DNA of 64,000 nt from Escherichia coli. Lineage in GTDB: Bacteria; Pseudomonadota; Gammaproteobacteria; Enterobacterales; Enterobacteriaceae. Each line of letters starts with the position of its first letter. Position 1 is the stretch's first letter. The notes under the pieces are model-generated. The model was not told the origin of the DNA and searched no databases. It was given only the letters and a program-made list of their open reading frames with translations. The stretch lies in NCBI RefSeq assembly GCF_003018115.1, contig NZ_CP027457.1. One strand, 5' to 3'. This document shows, piece after piece, positions 708-35,267 of this stretch. Position numbers and translations under genes: made by a program.

Positions 708-792
708 ACCATTTTCACTATAATAAAAACATTAACTTGCGTTTAAAATCAGTAAGTTAGTATTATCTTGTGTTTGCTCGTTTTACTCATTT

Positions 793-1839
793 TTAATGCT
801 CTGTCGCCAATCTGTCGCCATTGTAGGTCAACGAAGGTTGAGCCTTCCCTTTGTTTGTTATAATTTCATCAAAGATAGCTGGATTATTATCTTTCAGTAA
901 TCTTGCTAGTATAATGATTTGCCCAGACGAGCCATCATCCTTGAATGAAAGGAAATTATCGGTAATATCAAGAATATCAATGGTAAATTTGAAGTAAGTT
1001 TCAATTGTATCGCCAAGCTCAATGCTGGACATGAAGTTAGTAACCATTTCATATCCATCAAAGTATAAAGTTGCATGTTCATTTAACTCCATTGGAGTTA
1101 GGCAAAGCATTCGATTAAGTTCGGATAAGTGTTTTTCTATTGAATGAAGAGATTGCATTTGACGGATTAAAACTTCGTCAAACTGAGAGCCATGATTAGA
1201 TGAATGTATCTTCTCTAGGTTTTTTAGTATATCAACCCAGTGATTATTCACTTCACGTATGTATTCTTTATCTGTATTTTTAGGCCGTCCCTTCTCTGGT
1301 GAGCTATTTATGAAAATATATCTATATAGATGTATTGGGTAGTTAATTTTATAACTTATCTCTTTAGTACCATAATGACGTTCGCGTTTAATGGTTTTGT
1401 TAGGTAAATTGGTGAAATAATCAGTAACGAACTTTAGATGGCTATAGTAGCTATCAGATAGATTCTTTTGCTTGGTTTCCTCAATTTGTCGGTTTGTTTG
1501 AACTGTGCGGTGTATGTTTGCTACGACAGCAACAAATGGTATGGACAAAGAAAGTAAGGCGATAGGAAGCTTGCTAATTGCAATGAAATTATTAAAGCCC
1601 TCACTATCAAATTGAGGGGAATGTCCAAGCCAGGAAAATATACCAAAGTATATCGCTGAAAATACAGGAATCCTAAGTGATTGTTTAAATAAGTATTGAC
1701 TTGTTAATGGCCTTTCATCCATGTTAAAGCCTTTTTTTGATACGCATAGATATAATTCAAGGCATATATATAAAAAATATATTATGATAAGTAAGTACGA
1801 TATCCATGGGTATTGTTGGATATAGTTATTAACAAACAC
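793..1839 (-). CDS. hypothetical membrane protein (about 3 N-terminal TM helices plus ~230-aa soluble domain); AT-rich cargo between int and attL
   Basis: 348-codon ORF with GTG start at 1837-1839 preceded by GGAG; hydrophobic segments WISYLLIIIYFLYICLELYL, IPVFSAIYFGIFSWLG, LPIALLSLSIPFVAVVANI; AT-rich relative to phage backbone; no recognisable catalytic motif. Confidence 0.55.
   Translation of the reverse strand: MFVNNYIQQYPWISYLLIIIYFLYICLELYLCVSKKGFNMDERPLTSQYLFKQSLRIPVFSAIYFGIFSWLGHSPQFDSEGFNNFIAISKLPIALLSLSIPFVAVVANIHRTVQTNRQIEETKQKNLSDSYYSHLKFVTDYFTNLPNKTIKRERHYGTKEISYKINYPIHLYRYIFINSSPEKGRPKNTDKEYIREVNNHWVDILKNLEKIHSSNHGSQFDEVLIRQMQSLHSIEKHLSELNRMLCLTPMELNEHATLYFDGYEMVTNFMSSIELGDTIETYFKFTIDILDITDNFLSFKDDGSSGQIIILARLLKDNNPAIFDEIITNKGKAQPSLTYNGDRLATEH
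801..821. repeat. tandem direct repeats CTGTCGCCA(A/T), candidate integrase arm-type (P') sites
   Basis: CTGTCGCCAAT CTGTCGCCAT about 95-115 bp from the core; same 10-mer occurs as an inverted pair at 34808..34846 near attR. Confidence 0.4.
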
Positions 1840-3510: not shown

Positions 3511-3620
3511 ACCTCTTGATGTATATAAAAAGTGATCCTAATATCCATCCATGGTTTGAAAAGCAAAACCAAACCACATAAAACAAGATAAAACGAAACC
3601 AAACTAAGAGATACTGCACT
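3511..3620. promoter_or_regulatory. lysis-lysogeny switch region with face-to-face promoters/operators between cI and apl; candidate rightward promoter TTGAAA(3556-3561)-17 bp-TAAAAC(3579-3584)
   Basis: AT-rich 110-bp divergent intergenic region between repressor and excisionase/Cox-like gene. Confidence 0.35.
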
Positions 3621-3863
3621 ATGAGTACTGATATTTCAATTCGTGTACCAAAAGAGATGGCTACGCCTGCAGAGTTCGCGGAATGGGAAGGTATCTCCCG
3701 CGGCTCCGTGTATCAAAAAATTCACCATGGTCAGCTTGCTAAATACATGGTCAAGAAAGAAAAAAACAAAGGCCGCGTAAGCCTGCGTTATTTAATGTAC
3801 AAAACCGATCAGGTCCGTGAATCCCTCGGTCATTCCAACTTCCGCGTCATTGTTGGTAAGTAA
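3621..3863 (+). CDS. apl: Apl/Cox-like excisionase and transcriptional regulator
   Basis: 80-aa ORF first in the early rightward operon, opposite cI; HTH-like EFAEWEGISRGSVYQKIHHGQL. Confidence 0.7.
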   Translation: MSTDISIRVPKEMATPAEFAEWEGISRGSVYQKIHHGQLAKYMVKKEKNKGRVSLRYLMYKTDQVRESLGHSNFRVIVGK

Positions 3864-4613: not shown

Positions 4614-4918
4614 GCCCCGGTGAACGCCTGAATGGACTTAATCATATTGCGGAGTTAAGGGCGAAAGTTTTTGGTCTTAATATTGAGTCAGAGCTTGAGC
4701 GGTTTATTAAAGATATGCGTGATCCACGGGATATTAATAGCGAACAAAATAAACGGGCACTGGCTGCCATATTCTTTATGGCAAAAATTCCAGCTGAACG
4801 TCATAGCATCAGCATTAATGAGCTGACCACTGACGAAAAGCGGGAGTTGATTAAAGCAATGAATCATTTTCGTGCAGTGGTGAGCTTATTTCCCAGACGG
4901 TTAACCATGCCGAATTAA
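4577..4918 (+). CDS. hypothetical early protein (186 dhr position)
   Basis: 113-aa ORF with RBS, in early operon. Confidence 0.5.
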   Translation: MAIEGAAATVPLSPGERLNGLNHIAELRAKVFGLNIESELERFIKDMRDPRDINSEQNKRALAAIFFMAKIPAERHSISINELTTDEKRELIKAMNHFRAVVSLFPRRLTMPN

Positions 4919-23416: not shown

Positions 23417-24835
23417 GCACAAAATTTTATACCCTGCTGACGGATATTGGCGCGGCGAAACTTGCCAGCGCCGCCGCGCTCGGTGTGCCGCTAAAAATTA
23501 CCCATATGGCGGTGGGCGATGGCGGCGGAGCATTGCCGACGCCGGACGCAAAGCAGACGGCACTGGTAAATGAGAAACGCCGGGCTGCGCTGAATATGCT
23601 CTATATCGACCCGCAGAACAGCAGCCAGATTATTGCTGAACAGGTGATCCCTGAAAATGAGGGTGGTTGGTGGATACGTGAAGTGGGTCTGTTTGATGAG
23701 TCCGGGGCATTGATTGCCGTAGGCAACTGCCCGGAAAGCTATAAGCCGCAACTGGCTGAAGGCAGCGGGCGCACCCAGACCGTGCGCATGGTGCTGATTA
23801 CCAGCAGCACGGACAATATCACCCTGAAAATCGACCCTGCCGTCGTGCTGGCAACCCGCAAGTATGTGGATGACAAGGTACTGGAGCTGAAGGTGTTCGT
23901 GGATGATAAGATGGCAAAACATCTTGCCGCACCGGACCCGCATTCACAGTATGCACCCAAAGAAAGCCCGACATTGACCGGAACACCCAAAGCGCCAACG
24001 CCAGCGGAGGGGAATAACACCACGCAGATTGCGACCACCGCGTTTGTTCAGGCCGCTATTACTGCTCTGATTAACGGTGCGCCAGCCACGCTGGACACAC
24101 TGAAAGAAATTGCCGCAGCCATTAACAATGACCCGAAATTCAGTACCACCATTAACAATGCGCTGGCACTAAAAGCACCGCTGTCGAGTCCGGCACTCAC
24201 CGGAACGCCAACAGCACCTACTGCGGCACAGTCGGTCAACAATACACAGATTGCCACTACAGCTTTTGTGAAATCAGCGATTGCGGCAATGGTGGGTTCT
24301 GCACCTGCTGCACTGGATACACTGAACGAACTGGCGGCGGCGCTGGGGAATGACCCGAACTTTGCCACGACAATGTTGAATGCGCTGTCAGGCAAACAAC
24401 CGCTGGACAATACGCTGACTAATTTGAGTGGAAAGGATGTTGCTGGTCTTCTCGCATACCTTGGTTTGGGAGAAGCGGCAAAACGGGATGTGGGGACAGG
24501 GGAAAATCAGATACCGGACATGGCCTCTTTTGCCAGTGGTGATGGATGGATGAAATTACCCAACGGGAAAATCCTGCAATATGGTCGTGGTGCGGTTACG
24601 CCGACATTATCGACGCAAAACAATGAGAATTACATTCAGCATTCCTTTCCCCAAAAAAGCGGACTGCGCCATGCTTACTCATTCTGGTGATGGCGGTGCG
24701 CCTTTAGGCGCTGGGCGAGGGTTCGTGATGACTGCAGAAGGCCCAACGTTAACCGGCTTTAATTCTGCTTACAGAACGTCATCAACCAGCGACACGGTAT
24801 CGATGAATTACAGTTGGTGGGCTGTTGGTGAGTAA
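23413..24835 (+). CDS. H: tail fibre protein (P2 gpH-like); variable C-terminal part lies inside the invertible segment; apparent +1 frameshift at C4A6 run 24649..24658
   Basis: Collagen-like repeats (TGTPKAPT.., TGTPTAPT..); frame from 23413 stops at 24690 while an overlapping frame (24581..24835) runs open to just before tfa; removing one A from A6 joins them. Confidence 0.7.
24449..24474. repeat. invertase crossover site (left), TTCTCGCATACC-TT-GGTTTGGGAGAA
   Basis: 26-bp imperfect dyad inside H at the GLGE codons; right half is the exact reverse complement of the left half of the site at 26358..26383. Confidence 0.6.
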
Positions 24836-24855
24836 TTTTATTCAGGGTGATTTAT

Positions 24856-25299
24856 ATGAACGAATATGTTTATAGCGCAAGGCATAATGCTTTTTTCCCT
24901 GTGGATATGATTGATAAATATAAATCAGAGGGATGGGATTTATCAGACGCTAAGGAAGTAAATCAAAATATTATCAGTGAGTTTATGGCTGAACCGCCAC
25001 AAGGAAAAATCCGTATTGCCGGAGATGATGGGCTGCCTGCGTGGGCAGATATTCCTCCACCCACGCATGAAGAGCTTATTGAAATTACTGAATCAGAAAG
25101 ACAGCTACTAATTAACCAGGCCAACGAATACATGAACAGTAAGCAATGGCCCGGTAAAGCCGCTATTGGTCGTCTGAAAGGTGAGGAACTGGCGCAATAT
25201 AATTTGTGGCTGGATTATCTGGACGCACTGGAGCTGATCGATACTTCCGGTGCGCCAGATATTGAATGGCCTACGCCTCCGGCAGTTCAGGCCAGATGA
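24856..25299 (+). CDS. tail fibre assembly protein (Tfa, gpG/U-like)
   Basis: Follows the fibre gene in current orientation. Confidence 0.75.
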   Translation: MNEYVYSARHNAFFPVDMIDKYKSEGWDLSDAKEVNQNIISEFMAEPPQGKIRIAGDDGLPAWADIPPPTHEELIEITESERQLLINQANEYMNSKQWPGKAAIGRLKGEELAQYNLWLDYLDALELIDTSGAPDIEWPTPPAVQAR

Positions 25300-25873
25300 C
25301 ATCCGGCGCTGTGCTGGTATCTGTTGCCGTCACCGCGTCAATGTAATCCAGCACAGCGTTAAGGCGGGTTGTTTCTGCCTGCGTCAGCTTCCGTCCGGCC
25401 TGTAATTTCAGTTGAATCAGACTGATGGAGGCCATTGCAGTATCAATCAGCGACTGGCGCTGTGCTTCTGCTGCATCTACTGCTGCGCCGTGCTGTGCCT
25501 TGGTATCTGTCACCCATTTCTCACCATTCCATTCATCGTATGGCGTTAACGGGGCGATAGTGGTTGTATTTTCAGGATAATCACCCGGAGCTGTGATTTC
25601 TTTCGATTCTCCTGTTTCGATGCTATAGACGATTTCACCGCGATGATCTGGCACATATTCCCATGAATTTAAATTCACAGAACGACAGATTGCATAACCA
25701 ACCTTATGTATGCCTGGTGCATCAAGACAGGAACATGCCGGAATACCGACACCAACAGCAAGATATTCAGTTGACGTGGAAATATATTCCCGTGTTTCAC
25801 CATCGTAGTTATAAACGGTAACATCCCCTGCCTTTGTTGCAATAAGGTCACTATTTAATATTGCTTTATGCAT
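25271..25873 (-). CDS. alternative tail fibre assembly protein (Tfa')
   Basis: 200 aa on opposite strand within invertible segment; C-terminal ...DTSTAPDVIWPELPEA parallels Tfa ...DTSGAPDIEWPTPPA. Confidence 0.75.
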   Translation of the reverse strand: MHKAILNSDLIATKAGDVTVYNYDGETREYISTSTEYLAVGVGIPACSCLDAPGIHKVGYAICRSVNLNSWEYVPDHRGEIVYSIETGESKEITAPGDYPENTTTIAPLTPYDEWNGEKWVTDTKAQHGAAVDAAEAQRQSLIDTAMASISLIQLKLQAGRKLTQAETTRLNAVLDYIDAVTATDTSTAPDVIWPELPEA

Positions 25874-34279: not shown

Positions 34280-34300
34280 AACCTGCTACGGCAGGTTTTT
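34280..34300. terminator. bidirectional Rho-independent terminator
   Basis: AACCTGC-tacg-GCAGGTT followed by TTTT; serves ogr (+) and the convergent WYL-BRCT gene (-). Confidence 0.65.
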
Positions 34301-34781
34301 ATTCATCTGGGATCTCACCCGTTTCAAGAAAATGTATAAAGCCAGGCTCATCTATGATGATTGTGCCTTTCATCCTGGCTGCCGATACTTTTGATGGGCC
34401 TGCATTGTAACCGCAACAGAGCATCTGAAGGCTTTGGGTTACAGAGGTTCTTACCGTTAATCCTTGTTCATTCGCCTTATCAACCAATCTTTCTTTATCT
34501 GCTTTCTTAAATCCGGTGAAACACACATCGAATGTATTTTTTTTCGGACCAGACTGCTTAGTGAGATGTGAGTAGCTTTCGGGGAGGAATGACGCGCATT
34601 CCTGAATGGCTTGTTCTGGTGAATCGTACTGTTTAAGAATGCGGTCTTTTCGGAAGGTTTTTATTCGATCGGTGTTCTTACAAATGCCCTGTATATGATT
34701 TTCGCTATAACTGATGCTCTGTATAGAGTGAACACCGATACGACCATTTGCATTGATGTAAACAAAGTGAAGTTCTTCCAT
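34299..34781 (-). CDS. small WYL-domain plus BRCT-domain protein, cargo between ogr and attR
   Basis: 160 aa; N-terminal FVYINANGRIGVHSI...GICKNTDRIKTFRKDRI (WYL-like, ends in the FRxDRI signature); C-terminal DVCFTGFKKADKERLVDKANEQGLTVRTSVTQSLQMLCCGYNAGPSKVSAARMKGTIIIDEPGF (BRCT-like); RBS AGAGG before ATG at 34779-34781. Confidence 0.6.
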   Translation of the reverse strand: MEELHFVYINANGRIGVHSIQSISYSENHIQGICKNTDRIKTFRKDRILKQYDSPEQAIQECASFLPESYSHLTKQSGPKKNTFDVCFTGFKKADKERLVDKANEQGLTVRTSVTQSLQMLCCGYNAGPSKVSAARMKGTIIIDEPGFIHFLETGEIPDE

Positions 34782-34807: not shown

Positions 34808-34846
34808 ATGGCGACAGGCAAGATGGACGCAAAAGTCTGTCGCCAT
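34808..34846. repeat. inverted pair of the CTGTCGCCAT motif (ATGGCGACAG ... CTGTCGCCAT), candidate P-arm integrase binding sites / hairpin
   Basis: Perfect 10-bp inverted repeat with 19-nt spacer, 60-100 bp from attR core; same motif as 801..821. Confidence 0.4.
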
Positions 34847-34904
34847 TTTGCCGCCACTACCAAAGAAAAAGGGGCTACGCTTTCACGTAACCCCTTGATT
34901 TATT

Positions 34905-35267
34905 TGGTGGAGCTGGCGGGAGTTGAACCCGCGTCCGAAATTCCTACATCCTCGGTACTACATGCTTAGTCAGTCTTTACATTCGCTTGCCAGCTGCGGA
35001 CGGACACGCCACTAACAAACTAGCCTGATTAAGTTTTAACGCTTCAACCCCTGGCAGGGCTTCCACGCGATCTCTTTTGGGTTTGACCTCTCTTGATCCC
35101 CGTCCTAAGAGCGGAGGCTAGGGAGAGAGGGCTCTAAGCAGGTTATTAAGCTGCTAAAGCGTAGTTTTCGTCGTTTGCGACTATTTTTTGCGGCTTTTTA
35201 CGAGGCCAACCGCCCCTCGGCATGCACCTTGGGTTTCGCAAATCCCGTCGAATCCAGAATCAGCCCC
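34905..35267 (-). ncRNA. ssrA: tmRNA (SsrA), complete; 3' 45 nt form attR
   Basis: Reverse complement matches the E. coli tmRNA from GGGGCTGATTCTGGATTCGACGGG to ...GGTTCAACTCCCGCCAGCTCCACCA, including the tag-encoding region. Confidence 0.95.

Follow-up and report, generated by a model that had tools for sequence, protein, structure and literature searches.

A P2-family prophage in ssrA and the repeats at its two ends

The stretch of DNA analysed here (the window, 64,000 nucleotides of Escherichia coli contig NZ_CP027457.1, beginning within the last part of ypjA, which encodes an autotransporter) contains a prophage inserted in the 3′ end of ssrA, the gene for transfer-messenger RNA (tmRNA). 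The features of interest are short repeats next to its two attachment (att) cores, which are candidates for the arm-type binding sites of its integrase (Int). The intact ssrA is at 34905-35267 on the − strand. A 46-bp stretch that includes its 3′ end, 34904-34949, recurs in an identical copy at 662-707, where it is a displaced ssrA 3′ end. The former is the core of the ssrA-side junction, attR (P-O-B′), and the latter that of the int-side junction, attL (B-O-P′), in agreement with the assignment in the first-pass annotation of the window. Between the cores there is a 186-like prophage with a cargo open reading frame (ORF), int, cI, apl and cII at one end and, in the order given, D, ogr and a further cargo ORF at the other. 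It is a 186/Fels-2-like phage of the P2 family, whose closest deposited relatives are Klebsiella phage Kp4865-2 (99% identity over the int side) and Escherichia phage Cartapus, with the Salmonella phages RE2010, SEN8, SopEPhi and Fels-2 also among the closest.

The sequence CTGTCGCCA occurs exactly four times, at 801-809, 812-820 and 34837-34845 on the + strand and at 34809-34817 on the − strand. The first-pass annotation had placed these four correctly, there are no others in the 64 kb, and all are within about 115 bp of a core. Shuffling gives an expectation of 0.67 copies and four were attained in 2 of 100 shuffles, so that the count is only mildly unusual and it is the placement that carries the signal. 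A repeat finder reports the int-side copies as a tandem pair (800-809/811-820, spacing 11 bp) and those on the ogr side as a 14-nt inverted repeat with 93% complementarity and a gap of 19 nt (34804-34817/34837-34850). Comparison with relatives indicates that the real repeat unit is shorter and has one degenerate base, TGYCGCCA, and by that definition there is a fifth copy, TGCCGCCA, at 34849-34856, 11 bp past the copy at 34838. This second direct copy on the ogr side (TGCCGCCAC) had been overlooked when the inverted pair was first taken as the unit there. The copy at 34837 does stand as a conserved site, but its conserved partner is the direct one, the pair spanning 34837-34857. Since the window has many lone TGYCGCCA octamers (18, where 6.8 are expected), only phased pairs are diagnostic. 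The pattern TGYCGCCA-N3-TGYCGCCA has exactly two matches, 802-820 and 34838-34856, each on the + strand; 100 shuffles yielded none.

Each arm of the phage attachment site (attP) has, then, two direct repeats 11 bp, or one helical turn, apart. On the int side these are P′1 (CTGTCGCCAA, 801-810) and P′2 (CTGTCGCCAT, 812-821), and on the ogr side site a (CTGTCGCCAT, 34837-34846) and, 11 bp past it, site b (TTGCCGCCAC, 34848-34857), all on the + strand. P′2 and site a are the outer limits of conserved attP on their respective sides. Reconstituted attP is 34837-34949 joined to 708-821, approximately 230 bp, with 47 nt from the end of the P pair to the first base of the core and 94 nt from the last base of the core to the start of the P′ pair.

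Conservation of the arms and translation of the P′ pair

In an alignment of the att regions of related ssrA phages, the check that had been proposed in the first-pass annotation, the pair is present in 57 of 59 distinct arms on the P′ side and in 70 of 87 on the P side. The P′ set comprises 80 loci with integrases 71-100% identical to an intact version of the window Int; 60 of these have the same core as 662-707, and these 60 together with the window yield the 59 distinct full-length arms. In 52 of them both repeats have CGCCA in exactly the register seen in the window, the pair is displaced by a few bases in another five, and TGGAC-type repeats replace it in the last two (loci L088 and L089). 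In a profile of the 52 in-register sequences, column information peaks over both repeats and is about zero directly past the second; the position of P′1 and its CGCCA core are invariant. BLAST similarity with the genomes of Fels-2, SopEPhi, SEN8 and MLG42 spans from the core to 820-821 and ends there. What is found past P′2 is of two classes. The int stop codon is 3 nt on in SEN8, MLG42, Fels-2 and roughly twelve of the loci, while in dozens there is 0.6-2.2 kb of accessory sequence that is unrelated between phages.

The P-arm set was obtained by scanning for the phage-supplied terminator plus core (120 loci, 87 distinct P arms). CTGYCGCCATTTTGCCGCCA is 63-65 nt before the core in 70 of the 87, with conservation lost just upstream, and the CGCCA of site b is invariant in the 65 in-register P arms profiled. 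The other 17 (among L090-L209) have TGGAC-type repeats at the same place. Here BLAST similarity with Fels-2, RE2010, SopEPhi and SEN8 starts at 34837.

On the int side the pair is also coding. The cargo ORF there (793-1839, − strand, 348 amino acids) specifies a probable protein with two transmembrane segments (2-TM) that belongs to phrog_17460, and the first-pass statement that the repeats are within its last codons proved correct: the last nine, NGDRLATEH, are 796-822 and span both P′ repeats. Its 3′ end reads AAT GGC GAC AGA TTG GCG ACA GAG CAT TAA, with NGD and LAT being the two repeats and the TAA located in the next conserved element. Because the frame has no stop of its own before this and runs through both repeats, the nine codons would be translated arm sites. 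Homologues of the cargo protein down to 41-47% identity have the tail (N/D)G(D/G)xLAAEH, and the two that could be located (in Cronobacter and on a metagenome contig) are encoded in the interval from int to the ssrA core and read through the repeats likewise. The overlap with the repeats persists in homologues of as little as 44-47% identity. By this comparison the read-through is of long standing and came to this prophage by inheritance; it did not arise there recently. The D/G variation in the peptide matches the T/C variation permitted in the arm site, and on that evidence it is the arm sites that are under constraint, with the peptide tail carried along.

These features bear on the possibility that the motif is just a by-product of chance, of base composition or of selection on the C-terminal peptide of the cargo. 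The abundance of lone octamers, the 2 of 100 shuffles with four 9-mers and the location of the repeats within an ORF could all be cited for it. Yet the phased pair was absent from every shuffle, it is equally conserved where it is non-coding, with the int stop 3 nt off, and where unrelated cargo follows, the variable residue of the peptide follows the variable base of the site, and the phrog_17460 profile ends 16 residues before the C-terminus of the cargo protein. This explanation, to which we attach next to no probability, is refuted as far as sequence comparison allows. The proposal in the first-pass annotation that cargo was inserted against pre-existing arm sites has gained support: in cargo-free relatives the int stop is 3 nt from P′2, and elsewhere the sequences at that point are unrelated. 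The int-side cargo is accessory. For P2-like phages with cargo at this minor hotspot between int and att, the cargo abuts, and can read through, the outer arm site.

One locus (L214, ~3560-3600 and 4700-4870) has two cargo genes between int and the core, and its homologue of the int-side cargo protein, a more distant one, has its own stop. Past that stop come a decayed pair, TGTCGCCA...TATCGTCA, then the second cargo gene and finally, at the usual spacing from the core, an intact pair. The arrangement suggests that cargo was gained in steps and that displaced sites decayed.

The integrase and the proteins of the attachment site

The integrase gene (1829-2868, − strand) is frameshifted. The protein starts MTIRKQPNGKWLCECYPNG / MTIRKQPNGKWLCECY, a 186-type arm-binding N-terminus (KWLCECY) with W/E/Y at the discriminating positions, and in its intact version Pfam recognises Int_N and Phage_integrase domains. 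In Nilsson et al. 2011 (PMC3448106), arm repeats are described for all P2-like phages examined but one, the P2-type repeat being tgTGGaCa and the 186-type repeat tgccGCCActt, with Y/D/R (P2 type) and W/E/Y (186 type) as the candidate specificity residues in the Int N-terminus. The copies in the window, CTGTCGCCAAT, CTGTCGCCATT, CTGTCGCCATT and TTGCCGCCACT, fit the latter repeat and also the YAYCGCCAYTY of the 186 GenBank record, and their CGCCA core is invariant in the logos. In ssrA-core loci, CGCCA repeats accompany every integrase that has KW(L/I)CECY. TGGAC repeats accompany the two that have WLCD(L/I)R, those of L088 and L089, in which D and R are as in P2 Int. In the loci compared, repeat type tracks Int residues 14 and 16, regardless of core specificity.

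The parallel with phage 186 is extensive. Its record (NC_001317) has predicted Int arm sites, three left and two right of attP, IHF (integration host factor) footprints that flank the core, five Apl sites before the right pair, and a ‘predicted terminator of lysogenic operon’ where the terminator in the window is. Both attachment sites have direct repeats with a CGCCA core 11 bp apart on each arm, three sites on the left, of which the distal one is inverted, and two on the right, a terminator and an IHF site (in the window a consensus match) between left pair and core, Apl sites (in the window putative ones) between core and right pair, and an Int N-terminus with W/E/Y at the discriminating positions; a small ORF (orf69) is between int and the right pair in 186 also. 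They differ in the core (ileY tRNA in 186, ssrA here), in the motif (YAYCGCCA against YTGYCGCCA) and in the Apl operators (ATTGCC-like against the putative GTTTKR-like ones here), and the integrases are 56% identical. The phages Fels-2, SopEPhi, RE2010 and SEN8 (Felsduovirus) and Cartapus and MLG42 (Elveevirus) share the core, the terminator, both pairs and the distances with the window, their arms being 81-98% identical, though their P′ repeats are mostly TGCCGCCA, against TGTCGCCA in the window. Int-side cargo is lacking in Fels-2, SEN8 and MLG42, where the int stop is 3 nt from P′2. P2 itself (NC_001895) also has two direct repeats 11 bp apart per arm, annotated as protein_bind. Its P arm has an IHF site, and sites for Cox, its recombination directionality factor, precede the P′ pair. 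Its repeat (TGTGGACA), its Y/D/R N-terminus and its core, which is outside RNA genes, are different. The P′ pair of P2 (24470-24496) is inside the last codons of int (24462-25475, tail ...SVHTVSTVE), a precedent for the overlap of arm site and coding sequence.

Phage lambda offers the general model. With its arm sites P1, P2 and P′1-P′3, its Int is heterobivalent, a small N-terminal domain being on the arms and the body of the protein on the core, and IHF and Xis bend the arms; the motif, number and orientation of its sites differ from those here. To our knowledge, its N-domain has no detectable sequence similarity to the window Int. By extension from lambda, P2 and 186, the arm repeats would be bound by the N-terminal ~50-60 residues of the prophage Int and the core by the rest of the protein. 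IHF at two putative sites would bend the DNA so that one Int molecule bridges arm and core. These sites, AATCAGTAAGTTA at 747-759 (+ strand, P′ arm) and AATCAAGGGGTTA at 34888-34900 (− strand, abutting the core), are consensus matches only, being two of seven matches to WATCARNNNNTTR in the 64 kb, and 186 has an IHF footprint at the place equivalent to the first and another directly left of its core, as with the second. Adjoining the P′ pair, at 780-796 on the + strand, are GTTTTA and TTTTTAA 10-11 bp apart, putative operators of the excisionase Apl, which contain the cargo stop codon (793-795). The pattern GTTTKR-N4-5-KTTTKR has six matches in the window (1.05 expected), of which three overlap one another on the − strand at 3569-3604, in the cI/apl intergenic switch region, and one is at 780-795 (+); beside the P′ pair the GTTTKR repeats are near-invariant islands in the 52-sequence profile. 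They are probably operators of the phage's Apl-like protein (80 amino acids, 3621-3863), which would set direction toward excision. Between the P pair and the core is an intrinsic terminator (34869-34896, − strand, a 12-bp stem followed by TTTCTTT). It is phage DNA that in the lysogen terminates ssrA and, if 186 is a guide, would end the lysogenic operon in the phage. Every ssrA phage retrieved has it, whether the arms are of the P2 or the 186 type.

Might the repeats, for all their closeness to att, be recognised not by Int but by another protein (for instance the CI repressor, the Apl excisionase or a host factor)? Direct repeats spaced by about one turn of the helix are used by recombination directionality factors too (PMC7498355). 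The arm repeats, however, are on both arms and the Apl sites of 186 on one arm only and of other sequence, a separate Apl-like motif, GTTTKR, is common to the cI/apl switch region and the P′ arm, and a change of repeat type is accompanied by a change at Int residues 14 and 16. The window motif is, moreover, the published 186-type arm consensus (PMC3448106). A different binder is thus very unlikely.

The TGYCGCCA pairs are instead most probably arm-type sites for the tyrosine integrase of the prophage itself, a reading to which we give a probability of roughly 0.85. Integrase arm sites on P and P′ had been suggested in the first-pass annotation, and the comparative evidence favours that suggestion. 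It rests on fixed position, the 11-bp phase, conservation that ends at the repeats, the match to the 186-type consensus and covariation with the Int N-terminus, and we also count for it that L214 retains an intact pair at the usual spacing from the core and that its displaced pair has decayed.

Several considerations weigh on the other side. The second position of the window motif is G, where the 186 consensus has A. The arm sites of 186 are annotated as ‘predicted’, protein-binding annotation being available only for those of P2. The covariation is drawn from a sample with just two P2-type integrases in the int-anchored set, and the sequences compared share descent, so that the conservation counts are not numbers of independent events. 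In addition, since int is frameshifted, present-day function of the arm sites in this strain is doubtful.

The frameshift is a 1-bp deletion near 2406 (2395-2410) in comparison with three close relatives, two E. coli chromosomes and Kp4865-2, in all of which an intact integrase of 346 amino acids is annotated. It breaks int after residue 154, leaving ORFs of 175 and 174 amino acids, and the intact frame expected of an excision-competent prophage is not found in the window. The deletion may be real, with the prophage locked in, or a sequencing error. If real, this is a prophage with intact arm sites that is unable to excise by itself; the 175-residue N-terminal fragment, which includes the arm-binding domain, could still be made. 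Identity of int with that of RE2010 is ~97% upstream of the frameshift point and ~80% downstream, and this drop (at ~2400) suggests a mosaic junction within int, between the N-terminal and catalytic parts.

Features of this kind have already been described for 186-type phages, among which is the Fels-2/SopEPhi group with this attP, and the results leave the general understanding of such systems unchanged. The additions made here are modest: the exact limits of attP, the covariation of the repeats with Int residues 14 and 16 among ssrA-specific integrases, and the conserved read-through of one cargo family. The exact limits are of use for annotating prophage ends and for separating core phage DNA from accessory cargo. 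The ssrA phages with CGCCA or TGGAC arms represent a natural swap of arm specificity on a constant core, which supports the residues proposed in 2011 as specificity determinants. Phages with TGGAC arms have the same core and the same terminator as those with CGCCA arms. In four loci (L011, L027, L028 and L035) a P2-type P arm is joined via the core to a 186-type P′ arm. These were considered as hybrid attP sites and rejected, the geometry of the contigs being most simply that of tandem prophage junctions at ssrA. A tblastn search for Ogr and D in the 1-2 kb past these junctions gave no match, and the tandem reading is not proven.

Accessory genes and the inverted copy on the ogr side

In close relatives the RefSeq homologue of the int-side cargo starts at an ATG corresponding to 1722 and is a hypothetical protein of 309 amino acids with the same stop. 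A Pfam search with the 348-residue protein gave no match, and PADLOC gave a weak one to ‘2TM effector’ (E = 2e-4). On the ogr side, between the ogr terminator and the P arm, the second cargo gene (34299-34781, − strand) encodes 160 amino acids and is assigned to phrog_2561, ‘DNA ligase’. The C-terminal half of its product is BRCT-like (a sub-threshold match), PADLOC matches it weakly to PDC-S48, and the gene is common to Cartapus, 500465-1 and MLG42. The slot that it occupies has many other unrelated cargos in relatives. Accessory genes have gathered just outside both arm pairs.

The region between this gene and the P pair contains the extra inverted copy of the motif (34809-34817, − strand), within the inverted repeat 34804-34817/34837-34850. 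A third, distal copy is a variable feature of 186-type P arms. It is direct and 19-21 bp upstream in 25 of the 70, typically overlapping the T-run of the ogr terminator as in Fels-2, whose attP has three plus two direct copies of the motif (the third P-arm copy of SEN8 is direct as well, unlike that in the window). It is inverted in 13, always with the 160-residue cargo gene and with occasional single-base variants, and absent from the other 32. We consider it possible, though doubtful, that the inverted pair is the functional unit of the ogr side, either as a third, inverted Int site or as a stem-loop or operator for the cargo gene. The 14-nt complementarity to the region of site a, an RNA fold of the + strand at −25.8 kcal/mol (z = −4.1), the inverted third site beside the left pair of 186, the location in the 55 bp separating the cargo start codon (34781) from the P pair, and retention in 13 of 13 distinct arms with the 160-residue cargo are all in keeping with it. 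But an inverted copy is missing from 57 of the 70 distinct 186-type P arms, so that attP in general does not depend on it, the homologous cargo gene of MLG42 occurs without it, and RNA of the − strand, the sense of the cargo gene, folds no better than shuffled sequence (z = −1.35). A promoter scan of the region upstream of the cargo gene found no sigma-70-like promoter. By its distribution among the P arms, the inverted copy is not part of core attP and belongs to the ogr-side cargo module; it would possibly be a stand-in for the direct distal site of cargo-free relatives.

A further possibility is that the arm sites double as control elements for cargo, Int at the P′ pair and at the P pair plus inverted copy making cargo expression depend on whether the prophage is lysogenic or excising. 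For the strain analysed, the binder could instead be the 175-residue fragment, and the inverted copy could have been acquired with the cargo for control. We think this improbable.

In the host DNA beside the ypjA terminator, a copy with one mismatch, ATGTCGCCA (537-545), was considered as a relic arm site of an older element and rejected: these bases vary in the host flank of other strains and the match is due to chance. Next to the inverted copy, GATGGACGCAA (34822-34832) is a match to the first of the P2-type repeats on the arms of other ssrA phages (e.g. L155 and L175); no locus in the P-arm set pairs the 160-residue cargo with P2-type arms. The match could be a coincidence, a recombination scar or a decayed inverted copy of the 186-type motif. 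The segment GCAAGATGGACGCAA (34818-34832) is a degenerate tandem copy of the preceding TCAAGATGGCGACAG.

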